A stretch of DNA of 64,000 bases from Bacteroidales bacterium (GTDB taxonomy: Bacteria > Bacteroidota > Bacteroidia > Bacteroidales > UBA10428): NCBI GenBank assembly GCA_965230395.1, contig CBDDKV010000002.1:1920947-1984946 (forward strand), in the 5' to 3' direction. The position numbers were made by a program, and so were the translations under genes. The stretch's first letter is position 1, and each line of letters opens with the position of its first letter. This document shows positions 38,769-63,714 of the stretch, one piece after another. A model generated the notes under the pieces. That model ran no database searches and was not told where the DNA came from. It saw nothing but the letters and a program-made list of their open reading frames with translations.

Positions 38769-38811
38769 AAAATACCATTACCTTTTTTAAAAGTTATGCT
38801 ATTTTGTTGTT
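38769..38811 (+). repeat. attI-like junction motif ending in G|TT
   Basis: AAAATACCATTACCTTTTTTAAAAGTTATGCTATTTTGTTGTT lies immediately 3' of the recombinase relic. Near-identical copies end at 50449, 59332 and 61316. Sequence diverges completely right after the GTT in all four. Confidence 0.65.
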
Positions 38812-38846
38812 AGCATGCATTAGAAAACAGTACCCTCCCTAAATAT

Positions 38847-40426: not shown

Positions 40427-40876
40427 TTACATAGGGATTGGTTGGCCTGTTTGTGTGGGTATAACATCAGGGCTTCCCCTGATAAGAGGTCTAAAAGAGG
40501 CAATACGCCGCATGGTGCCACATTTGCATTTAGGGCATTGATCGTGGGGGTGGCCAAAAAGCAAAACAAACAATTCCTGCCAGGGAATACCTTTTTTAGA
40601 TTCGGGCGCAACGGCACCCAAAGCTTCCCGGATGATAGCCAAACAGCTACCTTTCTTACAAGAACTGAAAATTCCATAGTGTCGGACCTTCATAAATCCG
40701 GGCGGAAGAATGTGCATTGACAGCCTTCGGAGGAATTCAAAGAAAGACAGGGACATTACGCCAATCCTGGAGTTTTTATAGTTGGGCCACGAAAAGTATA
40801 CGTTATCACCATCAATACCTTTAATGCGATGGTTACTAATAGCCACCCTGTGTGAGTACCTGGACAAATAATCCAA
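40427..40876 (-). pseudogene. IS91-family (Y2 HUH) transposase, C-terminal fragment only
   Basis: It reads YLSRYSHRVAISNHRIKGIDGDNVYFSW...FEFLRRLSMHILPPGFMKVRHYGIFSS and ends at its native stop. The N-terminal ~60 percent, including the HUH and zinc-binding parts, is absent. Confidence 0.75.
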
Positions 40877-42230: not shown

Positions 42231-42295
42231 GTGTACAACAAAGAACTAAGGTAAAAACCAAGTAAATTTCCCATAATTTTTCTTTTCGAACTACC
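42231..42295 (+). repeat. left part of attC-like site of cassette 3 (interrupted by IS110-family element)
   Basis: The first box is GTGTACAAC. The left arm CTAAGGTAAAAACCAAGTAAATTTC is the imperfect complement of the right arm GAAATCACTTATGTTTTCTTATA at 43686-43708. The right edge is approximate. Confidence 0.55.
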
Positions 42296-42330
42296 TGAGT
42301 TTTTGGGGAGGCAGATTCGAAAAGGAAAAA

Positions 42331-43299
42331 TTATTTTGTTGGTACTACTGACCTGAACTCTGGACTATACAGTACACCTGATTTGGCAATTGCCAAGGAC
42401 TGAGACAAGAGTTTATTGGGCACAGCAATCAGTGCAAGCTTTTTAGGCTTACCTTTATTCACCAGCCTTTCATACAGATCTCTAAATTGTTGATTGCTAT
42501 GGCAAGCAGTAAAGCTGCACATAAATAAGTGATTTCGAATTAAAGGATTACCTCTTTTTGATATTCTGGGTTTTCCCCTTACACTTGTTCCAGATGCCGT
42601 GATGACTGGTGAAAGGCCAAAGAAGGCCGATAGCTGTCCGGAGCTTTCAAATGATTGAAAACCATTGGTACAAACAATGAGCATAATCGCTGTCTTTTTA
42701 CCAATCCCTGGGATTGGTAAAAGATTGGTCAATAGCTCTTTTTCGTGCTCTTTTATTTGCTCTTCCAGCTCCTTTTCAAGTAACTTAATCTCGGAGTTGA
42801 TTTGACGAATTTGGCGTTTTAAAGATGTTATAATCCGTCCTTTGCCCCCTTTGTCAATAAAGCTATGTAGTTTGTTTTTAAGGGCGGTGTTTTGCTTAAA
42901 AAACAAACTTATTGTCGTATGTAAGTCTTTACAGTCATTAATATATTTAGGTAATGGTTTCCATCGGCTAATACTCTGCTCTTGGGCATATTTTACTATC
43001 ATTTTGGCGTCACTTTTATCCGTTTTATTATGCTGTAATTTCATTTGGATAAAGCGTTTAATTACCAATGGATTTATAACAGGGACATTAACCTGGTTCT
43101 CATGAAGGAATACAGCAAGCCGATGATAATAACTTCCGGAGTATTCCATAACACACCAGCTATTTGAATCAATTAGCAATAAGAACTCATAAAATCCATC
43201 TGAGGTATTCTTGAACTTTCTATGTCCCAGCTTAATACTCCAAACATCAAAAACCTTTTTTGAAATGTCAATACCAATAAAATGTGTATTTTTATTCAT
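42331..43299 (-). CDS. IS110-family (DEDD) transposase
   Basis: It reads MNKNTHFIGIDISKKVFDV...MEYSGSYYHRLA (RuvC-like DEDD N-domain) and has a C-terminal Transposase_20-type domain (IPGIGKKTAIMLI...SGTSVRGKPRISKRGNPLIRNHLFMC). The start is set at the ATG at 43299. Confidence 0.9.
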   Translation of the reverse strand: MNKNTHFIGIDISKKVFDVWSIKLGHRKFKNTSDGFYEFLLLIDSNSWCVMEYSGSYYHRLAVFLHENQVNVPVINPLVIKRFIQMKLQHNKTDKSDAKMIVKYAQEQSISRWKPLPKYINDCKDLHTTISLFFKQNTALKNKLHSFIDKGGKGRIITSLKRQIRQINSEIKLLEKELEEQIKEHEKELLTNLLPIPGIGKKTAIMLIVCTNGFQSFESSGQLSAFFGLSPVITASGTSVRGKPRISKRGNPLIRNHLFMCSFTACHSNQQFRDLYERLVNKGKPKKLALIAVPNKLLSQSLAIAKSGVLYSPEFRSVVPTK

Positions 43300-43341
43300 G
43301 ATAATTAATTTGTAAAGAACGATGCTACTTTGATATAGCAA

Positions 43342-43522
43342 CCTAAAAACAGGCTCTGCCCCCCAGAGAACTAATCGTATTTAAGTAGCGAAAGAGTGGT
43401 AATTTTCATTGTTGACTAGCTTTATGCTTTATGTATAAATTAATCTTGTCCCACTCTTCCGTTCTTTTAATTTTATTATGAAAATAAGAAATTGCAAACT
43501 TAGGATGTATAAAAAACATAAG
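43342..43522 (-). ncRNA. candidate IS110 bridge (guide) RNA region in the left end of IS #1
   Basis: This is the noncoding left end upstream of the transposase. It has the stem AGAGTGG / CCACTCT around a ~50-nt loop and the hairpin CTCTG-GGGGG-CAGAG. The relic copy at 63.6 kb changes TAA to TGG on one side and gains CCA on the other, lengthening the same stem. Assignment as a bridge RNA is by analogy only. Confidence 0.35.
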
Positions 43523-43639
43523 TGGATCAGTGGTTTACGGAAAGTTGGCACATTTACTCAGCTCCGCCAACCTTTAGCTCACGACCAAAGGGAGTAAATC
43601 TGCGATTTGACGGGTTGTTTTAAAAAAGTAAATTTGTGT

Positions 43640-43714
43640 CAAAACGCAAATTTGGCTCAGTGCAAATTGACAGGTATGAGCTTCGAAATCACTTATGTTT
43701 TCTTATATTCAACA
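43640..43714 (+). repeat. right part of long-type attC-like site (S4)
   Basis: TTGACAGGTATGAGCTTCGAAATCACTTATGTTTTCTTATATTCAAC follows the family consensus TTGATAGGT..GAGCTTCGAAAT + ~24 nt. About 115 nt between the IS end and this arm are unresolved. Confidence 0.55.
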
Positions 43715-43773
43715 TTTTACGCCATATAAACGGCCATGGTGCAATAAAATAAACTGATTTAGAGGAAAAATTA

Positions 43774-44667: not shown

Positions 44668-44670
44668 TAC

Positions 44671-44803
44671 GGCGTACACGCGGTCATAAAACATTACGCG
44701 GATAGTGCTAATTTTAAACTAAATAACAATTATTAAACAGTCGAGTAGCTTGATAGGTAAGAGCTTCGAAATGTGCAATCTTTCTTATTGCCATACGTTA
44801 GGG
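44671..44803 (+). repeat. attC-like site, long type (S1)
   Basis: The first box GGCGTACAC is complementary to the cassette-4 start ATTTTACGCC (43714-43723). The left arm is GCGGTCATAAAACATTACGCGGATAGTGC. The right arm is TTGATAGGTAAGAGCTTCGAAATGTGCAATCTTTCTTATTGCCATAC. The junction G|TTAGG is at 44797. Confidence 0.75.
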
Positions 44804-46533
44804 CACATCCCCCACATCAGGAGCACTTCCAAAATAGATAGAAAATAAAGGTATCTATTTCTCCAGAGCTGATTAAATCCTTAAGCTAACGGGATCGTAC
44901 CTACGATTAAAAGTTCTGCTAAATTTGGGCTGACTCTATGCAAGGCCGATTCTAAAATGGTACTATGCCTTTGGTAAAGTCCGAGCGTCATTCTTGTTGA
45001 AATGTAAAAGCCCCAGAAGTAGTGATTCCGAGGCTTGTTGATAATTCCAGTGGTGGTGTCAAAATTTTGGCAACCCCGTTCATGATAATTCTCAATTCAA
45101 AGATACATTTCCTTAGGGTCATTTTGTAGAACTTTTAAAACAAAAAAATGGCAAAGAAGAAAAAGATGGAAATGGAAGTAATAAACACCAATGCAGCAGG
45201 TATTGATGTTGGAAGCCGTTCGCATTATGTAGCAGTGGGACAATCATTGGAAGATGTGAAAGAATTTGGAGTTTATGCTGAAGGTTTAGTTGAGTTATGT
45301 AAGTGGTTGCTTTCATATGGCATTACATCGGTAGCAATGGAATCTACAGGAGATTATTGGCAAAATCTATATACAGAACTTTTAAAGCATGGTTTGGAGG
45401 TGGCCTTGTGCAATGGCAAGTTCACCAAGCATGCCAAAGGGAAAAAGACAGATGTTAAGGATTGTAGGCATATTCAAAAGCTCCATGCTTTAGGCCTTTT
45501 GGATAGTAGCTTTCTGCCTGATGAGACAACAGAGAAATTGCGGACATATTGCCGTCAAAGAAGTGGCATGATAGACCGTTCAGCCACAGCTTCACGTAAA
45601 ATGCAGAAATACTTGAAATTACTGAATTTTAGATTAGATGTAGTAGTGAAAGATGTATGTGGGCTTACAGGGTTGAAAATAATTGAAGATATATGCAAAG
45701 GTAATTTAGACCCGTATTCATTGGCGGAACATAGGCATTATAATTGCCGCAAGCCTAAAGAAGAAATAGCAAAAGCATTACATGGTAATAATAGGGAAGA
45801 TTTCTTATTTGGATTAAAGCAAGAGTATGAGGCATACCAGTTTTATCAAAAGAAGATAAAATCTTGTGACAAAATGATAGAGCAATTTGTTAAATCGGAG
45901 CTAAAGAAATCGCCAGGGAAACTTAAGCTTAAAACAACAGATAAGCCATATAAAAGAATCAATAAAAATGCCCCGGAAATAAAAAACTTTAACCAGATCG
46001 CATTTCAATATTTCGGGGGTATCGATTTAATGGCAATTGAAGGGGTAAGCCATGGAACAGTTCTGGCAATAATGAGCGAGATAGGACAAAATAGTTTTGA
46101 TAAATTCCCCTCATCAAAAGAATTTGTATCGTGGTTGCGTTTAGCTCCCAACAATAAAATATCGGGTGGAAAAGTATTGAGTAATAGGATACCAAAGGGC
46201 AGTAATAGGTTGAAAATTGCATTAAGGCAAGCAGCAAATGCTATTGGTAATTTGAAAGACACACATTTATCAGATTTTTTTAAACGGGTTGCATTTCGGA
46301 AAGGAAGACAAGCAGCAGTAAGTGCAACTGCACGAAAATTAGGTGTTATAATTTGGACAATGGTAACCAAAAAAGTACCTTACAATCCACCAGCAGAATA
46401 CCTGTTCCTTGACCAAAAAAGGAAGATGGGAATGGCAAAAAGAATAAAGAAACAAATGGCTAAATTTGACATAAAACCAGAAGAAATTGGAATTGGCAAC
46501 TCACTGACACCCAACTACAATTTTTGACGTTAG
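44802..46533 (+). mobile_element. IS110-family insertion sequence #2 inserted at the G|TT core of site S1
   Basis: ACGTTAG occurs at both ends (44795-44801 and 46527-46533). About 345 nt of structured noncoding left end precede the transposase gene, whose stop codon abuts the right-hand ACGTTAG. Confidence 0.8.
45148..46527 (+). CDS. IS110-family (DEDD) transposase
   Basis: It reads AAGIDVGSRSHYVAV...MESTGDYWQNLY (DEDD N-domain) and has the C-terminal IEGVSHGTVLAIMSEIG...SGGKVLSNRIPKGSNRLKIALRQAA. It is only distantly related to the transposase of IS #1. Confidence 0.9.
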   Translation: MAKKKKMEMEVINTNAAGIDVGSRSHYVAVGQSLEDVKEFGVYAEGLVELCKWLLSYGITSVAMESTGDYWQNLYTELLKHGLEVALCNGKFTKHAKGKKTDVKDCRHIQKLHALGLLDSSFLPDETTEKLRTYCRQRSGMIDRSATASRKMQKYLKLLNFRLDVVVKDVCGLTGLKIIEDICKGNLDPYSLAEHRHYNCRKPKEEIAKALHGNNREDFLFGLKQEYEAYQFYQKKIKSCDKMIEQFVKSELKKSPGKLKLKTTDKPYKRINKNAPEIKNFNQIAFQYFGGIDLMAIEGVSHGTVLAIMSEIGQNSFDKFPSSKEFVSWLRLAPNNKISGGKVLSNRIPKGSNRLKIALRQAANAIGNLKDTHLSDFFKRVAFRKGRQAAVSATARKLGVIIWTMVTKKVPYNPPAEYLFLDQKRKMGMAKRIKKQMAKFDIKPEEIGIGNSLTPNYNF

Positions 46534-46554
46534 TCATGATAAAAACATCGTACT

Positions 46555-46929
46555 ATGACTACAGGGAAAAAATGGATGCTTGTATATTCAATCATTTTTT
46601 TATTACTATCGATATTATTTGTTGCGAATGATATATCAAATGAATATAACTTGGTATATATAATATGGATGTCAATTAATTATATTTTGATTAATACAGG
46701 TAATATTTTATTTACAATCGACAGAAAAATTAAAGGAGTTCAGAAAGTGTGGAAAGTTCTATTTCCGATTTTTTTAGTTAATCTAATTATATCACTAATA
46801 ATAGACCAAAAGTATGGTGCAAATTCATCACCTGATGATAGTTTAATTCTTAATATTTCTACTTTAATAATTGTTATTGCTCTTTTTTTTCCAGCATTTA
46901 GAGCAAATTTTAAATGGGCATATAAATAG
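46555..46929 (+). CDS. small multi-TM membrane protein, unknown function
   Basis: 124 aa with four hydrophobic segments. It is the first ORF after the junction G|TTAGTCATG at 46529. Confidence 0.6.
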   Translation: MTTGKKWMLVYSIIFLLLSILFVANDISNEYNLVYIIWMSINYILINTGNILFTIDRKIKGVQKVWKVLFPIFLVNLIISLIIDQKYGANSSPDDSLILNISTLIIVIALFFPAFRANFKWAYK

Positions 46930-48288: not shown

Positions 48289-48752
48289 CCCCGCTCGTGA
48301 GGGCTTGTAGCCTTCACGAATAACGAAACAACAAAGAGCCATACTAATAAAGTGAGGCATTTTGGTTTAATAAGGCAACAAACTGGCATATTGTATCTGC
48401 TATTGTTTTGCAAAAACAACAAAATGTGAGGAAAATATTGATTTTATAGTTATAAACATGAGTGGTGCAACCACTCATGAGCGAAGTAACTAAAAGTAGG
48501 AAATTTCTAGTTTTGAAATGTTTTTTATTTAGAATAAGCCTGTCCAGCTTTATAGTCCCCGCTCGTGAGGGCTTGTAGTTTTCACGAATAACGAAACAAC
48601 AAAGAGCCATACCTATAAAATGTGGCTTTGGTTTAATAAGGTAACAAACCGGCAGATTGTATCTGCTATTGTTTTTCAAAAACAACAAAATGCGAGGAAA
48701 ATATTAATTTTATAGTTATAAACATGAGTGGTGCAACCACTCATGAGCGAAG
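48289..48752 (+). repeat. two tandem ~198-bp noncoding units, period 268 bp
   Basis: Units 48289-48486 and 48557-48752 are near-identical. Each starts CGCTCGTGAG and ends CTCATGAGCG (inverted termini). Each contains the hairpins CGTGAGGGC/GCCTTCACG, TTGTTTT..AAAACAA and CATGAGTGG-TGCAA-CCACTCATG. Confidence 0.8.
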
Positions 48753-49985: not shown

Positions 49986-50449
49986 CAATAAATAGGACTA
50001 AGAGCGGTCTGCACGTCCCGGTTGAACTGCATCCAGGTTACAACAACCCTATTCGTATTTTACTAAACGATATTGTTGTAGGAAGATTGACCTGGGCAAC
50101 GTAAGTGGGTTGCTGAGTGGAACAGAAACCGGGACTTCAGACTGAAGCATTTCAAAAAGCAGGTTCGAAGCAATACTTTCCGGCCTTATAAACTAACATT
50201 AAACAGGAGTTGCAAAAAAATAACGCAAATAAGGCAGACCGGTTTTGAAGGAAATAAAAAAAACATACATTAGGTACGTTTAATAAAACACAGAAGGCAT
50301 CAACAGCCGATTATGAGCATTTGCCAATTTATTACAAATGCTAAGTGAGCTTATGTGTTAGATTACCATAAGACATTAACAAAATTCTACTTTGAAATGT
50401 ATAGAAGAAATATCATAACCTTTTTTAAAAGTTATGCTATTTTGCTGTT
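49986..50449 (+). repeat. noncoding module A (recombinase-relic-like + attI-like terminus)
   Basis: By eye, about nine in ten positions are identical to 60843-61316 and, over its 3' 347 nt, to 58986-59332. It ends in ...CCTTTTTTAAAAGTTATGCTATTTTGCTG|TTAGGCAC. Confidence 0.85.
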
Positions 50450-50531
50450 AGGCACAAGCGGAGGAGCGACTGTACAAATAATGATTCTAAACCGATAAAA
50501 AAGACAGAATAACATGATAGCCAACGCGCAA

Positions 50532-56866: not shown

Positions 56867-57002
56867 GTGCCTGACAGGCGGTCATAAAACATAGTGCGGA
56901 AAGTGGTATATTTGAGCAACATAACATTTAATCAACGGCAGCAACGGTCTGATAAGTCGGTGCTTCGAAACGCGCTACGTTTCATACCGCCAAACGTAGT
57001 AA
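56867..57002 (+). repeat. attC-like site, long type (S2)
   Basis: The first box GTGCCTGAC pairs with the cassette start GTTAGGCAC (50447-50455) at 8/9 plus one G-T. The arms are GGCGGTCATAAAACATAGTGCG and CGCGCTACGTTTCATACCGCC. The motif TGATAAGTCGGTGCTTCGAAAC is present. The junction G|TAG is at 56996. Confidence 0.75.
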
Positions 57003-57031
57003 CGCATTTTGGCAGACCGTGAAATAATAAA

Positions 57032-57784: not shown

Positions 57785-57918
57785 ACGCTACAACAAAAAA
57801 TATACGTAATGCGGGGTGATATGATTAAATTTAAGCTTAATACATTTATTAAACCAAATATTGGTTTGATAGTTTGGAGCTTTGAATTTCCTCGCTACTT
57901 ATATTCAAGTAGTTATCA
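57785..57918 (+). repeat. attC-like site, long type (S5)
   Basis: The left arm is CTACAACAAAAAATATACGTAATGCGGGG and the right arm is CCTCGCTACTTATATTCAAGTAG. The centre ACATTTATTAAACCAAATATTGGTTTGATAGTTTGGAGCTTTGAAT is homologous to S2 and S3. The junction G|TTATC is at 57912. Confidence 0.7.
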
Positions 57919-57951
57919 GTAAGCTAAATTGAGTGATAAAATGAAATATGT

Positions 57952-58872: not shown

Positions 58873-58991
58873 ACACCTGATTTGGCAATTGCCAAGGACT
58901 GGGACAAGAGTTTATTGGTCACAGCAATCAGTGCAAGTTTTTTGTCTGAAGCAAAGCGGGTTTAATTCTTTTAGCCAATAAGTCATAAGTG
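58873..58991 (-). mobile_element. internally deleted relic of IS110-family element #1
   Basis: 58873-58943 matches 42373-42443, the transposase 3' coding region that includes the palindrome TTGGCAATTGCCAA. The relic ends in ...CATAAG|TGG, the same terminus and junction as at 43517-43525. It abuts the nitrilase stop codon, so that cassette has no attC-like site. Confidence 0.55.
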
Positions 58992-59332
58992 GGTTGCTGA
59001 GTGGAACAAAAACCGGAACTTCAGGCTGAAGCATTTCAAAAAGCAGGTTCGAAGCAAAACTTTCCGGCTTTATAAACTAACATTAAACAGGAGTTGCAAA
59101 AAATAACGCAAACAGGGCTGGCCGGTTTTGAAGGAAATAAAAAAATATATACATTAGGTACGTTTAATAAAACACAGAAGGCATCAACAGCTGAATATAA
59201 GCATTTGCCAATTTATTACAAAAGCCTGGAGAGCTTATGTGACAGATTACCATAGATATTAACAAAATTCTACTTTGAAATGTATAGAAGAAATATCATT
59301 GCCTTTTTTAAAAGTTATGCTATTTTGTTGTT
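58986..59332 (+). repeat. noncoding module B (5'-truncated copy)
   Basis: It is homologous to module A from 50102 onward. It ends in ...TTTTAAAAGTTATGCTATTTTGTTG|TTGTGCTGC. Confidence 0.85.
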
Positions 59333-59389
59333 GTGCTGCATGCGAAGACATAGGCTCGTGACTATTAAACCGATTGATTATAAAAATTA

Positions 59390-59898: not shown

Positions 59899-60030
59899 CA
59901 GCACACACAATGTGTATAATTCATAAGGGGTTCAGTAGTTTGCGAACAATATCACTCGCATCAATTTTTGGTAGTAATTTGATAGGTTTAAAGCTCGCAA
60001 TCCCTTACGAAATCAAAAACTCAACTTGGT
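59899..60030 (+). repeat. attC-like site, long type (S6)
   Basis: The first box CAGCACACAC is complementary to the cassette start GTTGTGCTG (59330-59338) with a one-nt bulge. The left arm ATTCATAAGGGGTT pairs with AATCCCTTACGAAAT. The motif TTTGATAGGTTTAAAGCTCGCAAT is present. The junction lies near 60025. Confidence 0.65.
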
Positions 60031-60047
60031 AACAGATTACCTCAGCA

Positions 60048-60842: not shown

Positions 60843-61316
60843 CCAATGAATAAGACTACGAGCGGTCGGCACGGCCCGGCGATGCGTCCCGGTTGAACTG
60901 CATCCAGGTTACTACAACCCTATTCGTATTTTACTAAACGATATTGTTGCAGGAAGATTGACCTGGGCAACGTAAGTGGGTTGCTGAGTGGAACAGAAAC
61001 CGGGACTTCAGGCTGAAGCATTTCAAAAAGCAGGTTCGAAGCAAAACTTCCCGGCCTTATAAACTAACATTAAACAGGAGTTGCAAAATAACGCAAATAG
61101 GGCTGACCGGTTTTGAAGGAAATAAAAAAAACATACATTAGGTACGTTTAATAAAACACAGAAGGCATCAACAACCGAATATGAGCGTTTGCCAATTTAT
61201 TACAAAAGCCTGGTGAGCTTATGTGTCAGATTACCATAGATGTTAACAAAATTCTACTTTGAAATGTATTGAAGAAATATCATTACCTTTTTTAAAAGTT
61301 ATGCTATTGGGTTGTT
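60843..61316 (+). repeat. noncoding module C (full-length copy)
   Basis: It is collinear with module A and has a 12-nt insertion near its 5' end. It ends in ...TTTTAAAAGTTATGCTATTGGGTTG|TTGCAGC. Confidence 0.85.
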
Positions 61317-61419
61317 GCAGCTAATGCCAAGAAAGAGAGCAGTGCGGAGATAAACACCACTATTCTCATTAAATACGCGGGGAATAATTTGTATATTTAC
61401 CGCATAATGATAAAAGTTT

Positions 61420-62707: not shown

Positions 62708-62860
62708 GACTGCAATAAAGCACGAAACGCTAATGCGCGGTCATAAAACATTGCGCGGATAGTGCTATATTTGTATGAAATAACATTTAATCAACAGCTT
62801 AGCGGGTTGATAAGTTTGTGCTTTGAAATGCGCAATGTTTCATGCCGCAGGCCGTTGTGG
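62708..62860 (+). repeat. attC-like site, long type (S3)
   Basis: The arms GCGGTCATAAAACATTGCGC and GCGCAATGTTTCATGCCGC form a near-perfect inverted repeat. The central hairpin is ATCAAC...GTTGAT and the motif is TTGATAAGTTTGTGCTTTGAAAT. The junction G|TTGTGG is at 62854. A possible first box CTGCAA at 62709 matches the cassette start TTGCAG, but this match is weak. Confidence 0.7.
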
Positions 62861-63044
62861 GCAATAGGGCGAATCACTCCGACAAACTAAAATCATGACA
62901 AATAAACAGATAGAAAAAGATTTTGCAAAAAGTAATACAGACTGATTAATAAATTTATAACACTTAATAAACTACTAAAAGACAAGATTAATATTAATAA
63001 ACGGAGAATCAATTAAAATCATAAATCACATCGAAATTAAGAAA

Positions 63045-63545: not shown

Positions 63546-63714
63546 TATTGTATGTAAGTCTTTACAGTCATCGTATTTAAGTAGCGAAAGAGTGGTGGTT
63601 TTCATTGTTGACTAGCTTTATGTATAAATTAATCTTATCCCACCACTCTTCCATTCTTTTAATTTTATTATAAAAACAAGAAATTGCAAACTTAGGAGGT
63701 ATAAAAAACATAAG
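63546..63714 (-). mobile_element. internally deleted relic of IS110-family element #1 that retains the left-end noncoding region
   Basis: 63548-63572 matches 42911-42936, which is internal transposase coding sequence. It is joined directly to a copy of 43370-43522, the whole left-end noncoding region ending ...AAAAAACATAAG. Confidence 0.75.

Follow-up and report, generated by a model that had tools for sequence, protein, structure and literature searches.

A probably RNA-guided IS110-family insertion sequence at the 3' boundary of attC-like sites in Bacteroidota

Insertion sequences (ISs) of the IS1111-attC group choose their target with the help of an RNA, which is encoded downstream of the transposase gene (PMC11187229), and are found near the 5' end of attC sites, antisense to the gene cassettes (PMC3001079). 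IS110-family parasitism of integron recombination sites was previously known for this single proteobacterial IS1111 subgroup. With regard to the bridge RNAs of the family, Durrant et al. (PMC11208160) described left guides that span the core and are paired to the bottom strand. The present work deals with a stretch of 64,000 nt (the window) from a Bacteroidales bacterium (GenBank assembly GCA_965230395.1, contig CBDDKV010000002.1, positions 1,920,947 to 1,984,946 of the forward strand), and with an IS110-family element (the window IS) located in it next to an attC-like site, S1. The best overall explanation, which we regard as very probable, is an RNA-guided IS with an AT core, inserted at the 3' boundary of attC-like sites. 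The central hypothesis, that it belongs to an attC-like-targeting lineage of IS110 type with a guide RNA in its left end, is well supported by the comparative evidence presented below.

Element identity, ends and core

The recombinase of the window IS matched two Pfam families, DEDD_Tnp_IS110 (PF01548, 4e-20) and Transposase_20 (PF02371, 3e-13), and reached 205.7 bits against the NCBIfam model NF033542, "IS110 family RNA-guided transposase" (cut-off 140). The catalytic motifs GIDVG (D20), MESTG (E65), KTDVKD (D102, D105) and KISGG (S348) are readable, and the protein displays the RuvC-like DEDD N-terminal domain and the C-terminal Tnp domain with catalytic serine of the IS110 family. Further features of the family were also found, namely sequence-specific insertion, absence of target duplication, and absence of terminal inverted repeats: the ends CCCCCACAT and TCATGAT are not inverted repeats, and the two junctions share just the AT core. 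The non-coding ends measure 339 nt upstream of the recombinase gene versus 13 nt downstream. The first-pass annotation, which had proposed an IS110-family element with a 459-aa DEDD transposase and a long upstream end, is thus borne out by the Pfam and NCBIfam matches and by the lengths of the two ends. A PDB search with the recombinase returned spurious matches only, with no detectable match to IS621 or ISCro4, and the catalytic motifs are the sole sequence it shares with the IS621-like protein of a neighbouring IS110-family element described below. The family comprises 6,415 proteins at E <= 1e-50. In a tblastn search of plasmids, 581 records matched the window transposase and 2,893 matched that of the neighbouring element; the latter's matches come most often from Klebsiella and Escherichia, neither of which is among the ten commonest hosts of the former. 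As far as its sequence tells, the window IS is intact and belongs to a large lineage of probably RNA-guided IS110-family ISs in Bacteroidota. A second copy, 99% identical to the window transposase, is present on the same 6.7-Mb contig (P0003); exact-sequence look-ups with either transposase gave no match. Among enterobacteria, the transposase has its nearest relatives (446 aa, 37.7% identity) in NZ_OW849259.1 (L092, 78921-80261) and similar Citrobacter/Enterobacter plasmids, where they combine a long upstream with a very short downstream non-coding end and lie outside integrons.

The ends of the element (Table 1) were determined by comparison with other copies. A scan of species-representative genomes gave 80 loci with 71-84% protein identity, mostly hosted by Marinilabiliales, Prolixibacteraceae, Draconibacterium, Flavobacteriales and Chitinophagaceae, and metagenome contigs provided closer copies (95-99% identical) at 11 loci. 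Copies were anchored on the invariant left-end motif T(T/C)CCCCACAT, at which the conserved left interior begins, and on the ACGTTAG past the stop codon. In the 80 relatives, the right end is conserved through ACGTTAG, TC(A/T/G)NN and AT, whatever sequence comes next; the seven bases past ACGTTAG typically read TCAGAAT in relatives and TCATGAT in the window, and about 20 copies in one Draconibacterium chromosome have unrelated flanks with the same conserved right end. The left flank differs between identical copies, yet fits nCGTT(A/G)N5(C/A)AT. As the right end is conserved and the left flank variable, with only AT common to both, the shared junction bases are AT, and the core is AT at most, since the base preceding it differs between target (C) and donor (A) within one IS variant. 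The left junction of the window IS reads ACGTTAGGGCAC-AT-CCCCCACAT and the right junction ACGTTAGTCATG-AT-AAAAACATCG, with the right core copy at 46539-46540. The empty site is reconstructed as ...ACGTTAGGGCAC-AT-AAAAACATCG..., 14 nt upstream of the ATG at 46555, and the insertion joint lies 9 bp 3' of the G|TT of S1.

Two copies of ACGTTAG had been noticed in the first-pass annotation, with the stop codon running into the second, and both are indeed present, at 44795-44801 and at 46527-46533, the latter overlapped by the TGA at 46525-46527. This motif is not rare in the window (six copies, versus 3.8 expected), so that the coincidence alone proves nothing and the meaning of the two copies comes from conservation. 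On this comparison, the left copy is the R' box of the target and the right copy an R'-like box of the element's own, a resemblance and not a duplication produced by insertion.

The predicted bridge RNA and its guides

The left end probably encodes a guide RNA by which the family homes to its target. An alignment of 34 distinct left ends, good from about 110 nt past the left tip to the start codon, was folded with RNAalifold, and one hairpin was added by hand. In the resulting structure, 94% of cells are paired and 26 of the 43 pairs show compensatory changes; none of 500 shuffles reached any of five measures, and slid controls gave 24-44%. Invariant G-U pairs indicate that the RNA strand is that of the transposase. 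Comparative analysis alone was informative in this respect: single-sequence folding showed no significant stability (z = -1.6 for the whole left end, -1.0 for the RNA alone), and no Rfam family matched the bridge RNA region at either gathering or permissive thresholds. The Bacteroidota -7 promoter motif is TAnnTTTG, and the box TAAATTTG, which fits it, is likely the promoter of this RNA.

Two loop strands agree with the DNA they are expected to read. The left donor guide, in loop 2, is identical to the right end of the element in all six donor variants (TCAGAAT, TCACAAT, TCTCAAT, TCAAGAT, TCGAGAT and TCATGAT). The left target guide, in loop 1, resembles the 8 nt of flank before the core more than permuted flanks do (identity 3.81 versus 2.49 +/- 0.16, with 0 of 5000 permutations as high), the agreement being 91% at position -3, 71% at -4 and 62% at -5. 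Guide endings (TCAT, TAAT, GCAT, ACAT, CAAT) track the flanks, and two guide variants within one genome occupy different flank types. Since the left guides have the sense of the top strand, they would pair with the bottom strand, core included, and the terms left donor guide and left target guide are used here as in PMC11208160. On the right side, the loop 1 5' strand has a consensus, AUUUUUAAAAU, complementary to the consensus right flank AT-TTnAAAAA, and the right donor half is nearly invariant among relatives. Both guide strands are directly preceded by CCG(U) of the adjacent helix, an echo of the CGTT found in the targets. The relatives 95-99% identical to the window IS have the same guides, with a somewhat better flank fit (5-7 of 9). 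The AUUC past the left guide was also considered as a donor handshake guide and was rejected, as it is unchanged across donor variants. The bridge-RNA role suggested for the left end in the first-pass annotation is thus supported by a covarying RNA whose loop strands match donor and target.

Upstream of this RNA, the box GCTAACG complements the CGTTAG of the right end and is identical to the R'' consensus (the commonest R'' box), GCTAAC. It forms with the right end a 6-bp CGTTAG/CTAACG subterminal inverted repeat, located 7 nt from the right end and 35-78 nt from the left end, in which both arms are invariant. The box may be the left arm of this repeat, or else a mimic of R''. A CTAACG had already been pointed out in this region; the hexamer is there, at 44886-44891 and not at about 44888-44893, and a guide function does not fit its position, 41 nt 5' of the first RNA helix and outside both loops, invariant as it is.

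From a mechanistic point of view, a cycle can be proposed, in which the circle, the transcription of the RNA and the pairing of the right half are taken over by analogy from IS621 and ISEc21. The element would leave as a circle with joined ends ...ACGTTAG-TCATG-AT-CCCCCACAT..., and a structured RNA of about 190 nt would be transcribed from the left end (44932-45125) and sit on the DEDD recombinase. The A/U-rich 5' strand of loop 1 would probably pair with the A-rich right half. Target and donor alike also carry a fixed CGTT(A/G), 5-6 nt to the left of the positions read by the left guides. Exchange at the AT core would then place the element 9 bp past G|TT, in the leader of the next cassette, with its transposase gene co-oriented with the cassettes.

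Target sites and competing readings

The 140-200 nt to the left of most insertions hold a box ending in AAC, a spacer of 1-3 nt, an arm L'', a variable middle (often with TTGACAGG...CTCCGAAAT), an arm L', (C/G)AAC and CGTT(A/G). Twenty-one such sites, including four in the window, were aligned. In this alignment, AAC/GTT is nearly invariant, 16 of the 18 L-box pairs show compensatory changes, and 77.5% of cells are paired, versus 61.7% in shuffled controls and 31-43% when the partner is slid; a bulge pattern recurs among the sites. S1 itself is a decayed copy, with an R'' reading TAC and a duplex energy of just -10.6 kcal/mol. A covariance model of this structure, run on the window and on the 91 loci, detected five or six sites in the window, every one of them + strand and preceded by an open reading frame (ORF) of that strand, and 114 sites in the 91 loci, all 114 on the transposase strand, spaced by about 0.6-1.2 kb in loci holding several (e.g. 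L080). The IS occupies 36 of the 103 distinct sites, exactly at the 3' end of the model. Of the 69 sites lacking a standard left end next to them, two of which hold variant left ends, 63 show CGTT in register and 51 terminate in AT; empty sites elsewhere have the sequence ...CGTTRN5(C/A)AT with an A-rich stretch after it. Given their co-orientation and conserved register, these sites behave like the attC of cassette arrays, and it is their 3' boundary that the IS uses. Two earlier tools were set aside: a home-made hairpin scan for AAC...GTT was too unspecific (82 matches versus 40-54 in shuffles) and was replaced by the covariance model, and a first covariance model from an automatic consensus, with 8 pairs only, was dropped.

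No integron integrase gene was found in the 64-kb window. In two of the loci (L085 2874-4013; L086 2963-4105), a Xer-like tyrosine recombinase of 379-380 aa heads the array, on the same strand as the cassettes. It scored 208.6 (L085) and 184.7 bits (L086) against the integron integrase model TIGR02249 (cut-off 265), and 227 (L085, which passes) and 218.5 bits (L086, just under) against a XerA/integron-integrase model (cut-off 220). It has 19 residues where VchIntIA has the IntI-specific segment 181-242, and an extra N-terminal segment of about 108 aa. As this neighbouring recombinase is devoid of the IntI-specific insert, the sites were called attC-like, and the two arrays may represent a non-canonical integron-like system. 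Their cassettes encode SMODS, pAgo+SIR2, restriction-modification and HNH proteins, and the L085 recombinase adjoins an SHMT gene, as does the array in the window. In the window, ORFs before sites of the cassette-array-like region include those for a YggL-like protein, a 2,014-aa protein, a carbon-nitrogen hydrolase and a Fic protein, and the sites are irregularly spaced, by up to 12 kb.

Target preference was evaluated on 75 distinct insertions, of which 70 show CGTT in register and 73 a purine at -9; together with the co-orientation of all model-detected sites with the transposase, this register supports the site-specific targeting proposed for the element before flanks of other copies were compared. 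Of the two outcomes that would have counted against the first-pass hypothesis, unrelated flanks in other copies and a left end devoid of conserved structure, neither was observed. About half of the insertions lie at the 3' end of structured attC-like sites. The same IS was also found in non-attC DNA carrying the short motif alone (L081, L036, L042-L045, L053, L057), which indicates that sequence, not fold, is read. As the right end resembles the target, relatives also insert beside each other's right ends, and tandem junctions in L015 and L038 show the right end used as a target.

Derivatives of about 300-500 bp devoid of transposase were observed in several loci (L020 4454-5206; L039/L040/L041/L046/L048 2412-2549; L046 4471-4609; L047 5629-5767). 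They keep a bridge-RNA-like module (nhmmer, 19-25 bits) and stand in tandem with full-length relatives. In five Draconibacterium copies, one common transposase-less unit forms the left flank, with differing right flanks. These tandem units and the head-to-tail IS-IS junctions (L015, L038) are consistent with the right end acting as a target.

Several observations nevertheless weigh against an RNA-guided IS with an AT core at attC-like sites. The right junction is AT in 63 of 74 cases and reads AG (8) or AC (3) in the other 11, and the crossover of the host recombinase in these non-canonical sites is taken as G|TT by analogy. The window copy fits its own guides poorly, at 4 of 7 positions for the left target guide and 5 of 10 for the candidate right guide, which predicts ATTTTAGAAT where the flank reads ATAAAAACAT. 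The permutation tests correct incompletely for the relatedness of the elements. Covariation of the right target guide with flanks, evaluated in five registers and three lengths, was never significant (p about 0.16-0.4), and nothing survived multiple testing. As for a right donor guide, the two regions considered, the loop 2 5' strand UUGUUGAUAAU and helix P5 (GUGGUGG versus CCCCAC), gave partial matches and no covariation, and no such guide was identified. The recombinase is too diverged for sequence alignment with IS621, and the invariant GCTAACG lies upstream of the promoter-like box, outside the predicted RNA. Finally, none of the loop strands matches the near-invariant CGTT(A/G) that stands 5-6 nt to the left of the guided bases in both DNA partners.

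This last point is one argument for a first competing explanation, according to which the target is chosen mainly by the protein, through recognition of the attC-like hairpin or of the CGTT box, with a minor contribution of the RNA loops or none. The modest agreement (40-46%) of the middle left-flank positions with the guide, the location of most insertions in structured sites, and the combined recognition of sequence and structure reported for ISPpu10 in a 2026 preprint all go in the same direction. By contrast, the flank changes with the guide variant over its last 3-5 positions, even among copies of one genome, the donor guide covaries perfectly, and at least ten insertions lie in hairpin-free DNA with the short motif, which makes target choice by protein alone or nearly so improbable. 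The association could also be passive, the IS spreading by cassette shuffling and not by targeted insertion of its own, as it lies inside the downstream cassette defined by G|TT and could travel along with it; distinct insertions of the same IS, however, have unrelated downstream genes and different left flanks, and 70 of 75 insertions stand at exactly the same distance from CGTT, so that we consider passive spread very unlikely.

Equally implausible is the scheme of the first-pass annotation, in which the element runs from one ACGTTAG to the other (44795-46533), with ACGTTAG as a duplicated core and the next cassette beginning at G|TTAGTC, and is inserted exactly at G|TT. Insertion or excision there would involve either a 7-bp duplication or the tyrosine recombinase of the array acting on the two G|TT sites, the IS behaving as a cassette. 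ACGTTAG does stand at both ends, the right copy being R'-like and the left-end GCTAAC R''-like, but the seven bases past the right copy are conserved in all relatives whatever the flank and are copied in an RNA loop, those past the left copy vary between copies of the same IS, only AT is common to both junctions, the covariance model finds nothing at the right end even with its filters off, and the IS is also found outside attC-like sites. RNA-guided insertion at an AT core, with the element starting at 44809 and its joint past G|TT, accounts better for these junctions, and the first-pass boundaries and role of ACGTTAG are off by 7-14 bases.

Table 1. Positions of the window IS, its predicted RNA and guides, and the attC-like sites of the window.
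Feature	Position	Strand	Basis
Complete element (1,732 bp, right core copy included)	44809-46540 (equivalently 44807-46538)	+	comparison with 80 relatives and 11 loci
Left target half (LT) and core, ACGTTAGGGCAC-AT	44795-44808	+	in register with left flanks of 75 insertions
Left AT core copy (inferred crossover dinucleotide)	44807-44808	.	only bases common to the variable-left-flank end and the conserved-right-end end
Right donor half (RD), CCCCCACAT (TCCCCACAT in relatives)	44809-44817	+	first bases of left end nearly invariant in all relatives
GCTAACG box	44885-44891	+	invariant in 34/34 aligned left ends
Promoter-like box, TAAATTTG	44920-44927	+	TA..TT positions invariant in left-end alignment (A1); 5 nt upstream of P1
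Predicted bridge RNA, ~190 nt, helices P1-P5 and a hairpin around two internal loops; P1 closes, then AUUUU	44932-45125	+	conserved, covarying structure
Loop 1 5' strand, AUUCUAAAAU, candidate right target guide	44949-44958	+	consensus complementarity
Loop 1 3' strand, GCGUCAU, putative left target guide (sense of left flank)	44985-44991	+	tracks flanks
Loop 2 3' strand, UCAUGAU, putative left donor guide	45080-45086	+	identical to last 7 nt of element (46534-46540)
Recombinase gene, 459 aa	45148-46527	+	Pfam and NCBIfam matches; motif alignment with IS621-like protein of neighbouring element
Right end, made up of the R'-like box ACGTTAG, the left donor half TCATG and the right copy of the AT core	46527-46540	+	conserved in all relatives irrespective of flank
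Right target half and next-cassette leader, AAAAACATCGTACT	46541-46554	+	directly 5' of ATG at 46555; compare empty sites elsewhere
S1 attC-like site: degenerate R''-like box GCGTAC, L''/L' arms, R' CGTTAGG, 3' extension GCAC-AT	44669-44808	+	repeat family; covariance model
attC-like site	56867-57007	+	covariance model; repeat family with S1
attC-like site	57786-57923	+	covariance model; repeat family with S1
attC-like site, newly found by covariance model	59900-60037	+	covariance model; repeat family with S1
attC-like site	62726-62865	+	covariance model; repeat family with S1
Empty target at end of site 62726-62865, GCCGTTGTGGGCAAT|AGGG	62851-62869		
Fragment of degenerate attC-like site	43612-43690		covariance model

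Neighbouring elements and comparison with known systems

A second, unrelated IS110-family element lies at 42238-43492 on the minus strand (transposase gene 42331-43341). Proteins of this type have 322-336 aa and match IS621 and ISCro4 in PDB with values of about 1e-29 to 5e-30. It borders a degenerate attC-like site (about 43493-43720) on the 5' (R''/L'') side and runs antisense to the array, a place and orientation which are those reported for IS1111-attC elements. Its relatives in two other genomes (L008 5624-6909; L012 1271-2577) also abut the L'' arm, and one site in L012 carries both IS types. A solo left-end fragment of this second element was found at 63570-63714. In addition, a repeat of about 450 bp is present in three copies between cassettes (50014-50469, 58898-59353 and 60885-61337, and also 38770-38829); next to one copy lie 71 nt derived from the 3' end of an IS-B-like transposase gene (58873-58943), and the repeat is otherwise unrelated to either IS. 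The idea that these repeats are simple deletion derivatives of the neighbouring IS was rejected. A tandem duplication with a unit of about 266 bp (48289-48752) has copies 90-95% identical, each with the palindrome CATGAGTGGTGCAACCACTCATG. At its left edge, the variable region holds a fragment of an IS91-type Y2 transposase gene (PF04986, 5e-23; 40427-40876, minus strand), and genes for Y2 transposases were also seen near arrays in L083, L085 and L088.

With the window IS, parasitism of recombination sites by the IS110 family extends to a very different, Bacteroidota lineage, acting at the opposite end of the site and in the opposite orientation, and the presence of a second, IS621-like element at the 5' end in the same window suggests that attC-like sites are a recurrent niche for RNA-guided ISs. 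Since insertion into the leader of the following cassette does not disrupt the site, its effect is expected to bear on the expression of cassettes more than on their mobility. The family also offers dozens of natural guide variants with known flanks, in which a fixed anchor stands beside programmable positions, and the transposase-less derivatives carrying RNA and guide variants constitute material for understanding and engineering bridge recombinases.

Like the window IS, elements of the IS1111-attC group (ISPa21, ISPst6, ISKpn4, ISPa25) have a DEDD recombinase and insert in a specific orientation at one end of attC. In these elements the RNA is encoded 3' of the transposase gene, whereas that of the window IS would lie upstream, and they insert antisense near the 5' end of attC, whereas the window IS family inserts 9 bp past the 3' end, in sense orientation at all model-detected sites. 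The IS1111-attC group is proteobacterial and associated with canonical integrons; the window IS is found in Bacteroidota arrays, next to which, in relatives, stands a recombinase without the IntI insert. The targeting of attC-like sites is likely of independent origin in the lineage of the window IS, even though the guide order of IS1111 type and a 6-bp subterminal inverted repeat call for caution.

IS621 and ISEc21 resemble the window IS, as reconstructed here, in having a long left end, which encodes an RNA with a target loop and a donor loop, left guides that pair with the bottom strand, core included (PMC11208160), no terminal inverted repeats and no target duplication. They differ by their core, CT instead of AT, and by the absence of the fixed CGTT anchor which is common to target and donor in the window IS. 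The window recombinase, with its 459 aa, has no PDB match to IS621, unlike that of the neighbouring element. The left guides of the window IS would lie on the 3' strands of the loops, whereas ISEc21 has its bottom-strand match on the 5' side of the top-strand one; the order predicted for the window IS, with the top-strand match before the bottom-strand match, is that of IS1111 seekRNA (PMC11187229). The layout of the window IS, with a long left end and an upstream RNA, fits the IS110 group, and its guide order does not. Its subterminal inverted repeat of 6 bp compares with 2-3 bp in the IS110 group and 7-17 bp in the IS1111 group (PMC11208160).

A more ambitious reading, which we put forward as a tentative possibility with the odds rather against it, is that the lineage represents a third architecture of the IS110 family. 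It would associate an upstream RNA of IS110 type with the guide order and longer subterminal inverted repeat of IS1111 type, and with a three-part recognition, made up of a CGTT anchor common to donor and target and of programmable guides on either side of the AT core, while the right end and GCTAACG would imitate R' and R''. Owing to this imitation, the element might stay mobilisable by, or interfere with, an integron-like system of non-canonical type, in which a Xer-like recombinase devoid of the IntI insert would be at work.

Two further groups of mobile elements invite comparison. Group IIC-attC introns are likewise mobile elements specialised on the attC of cassette arrays, with an RNA helping target choice; unlike the window IS, they are retroelements which use the bottom strand and insert antisense (PMC3001079), by an unrelated chemistry. 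ISPpu9, ISPpu10 and ISPa11, of the same family as the window IS, also home to short structured intergenic repeats (PMC11187229); there, the target is a repetitive extragenic palindromic (REP) hairpin, whereas the window IS appears to target a recombination site at a cassette boundary.

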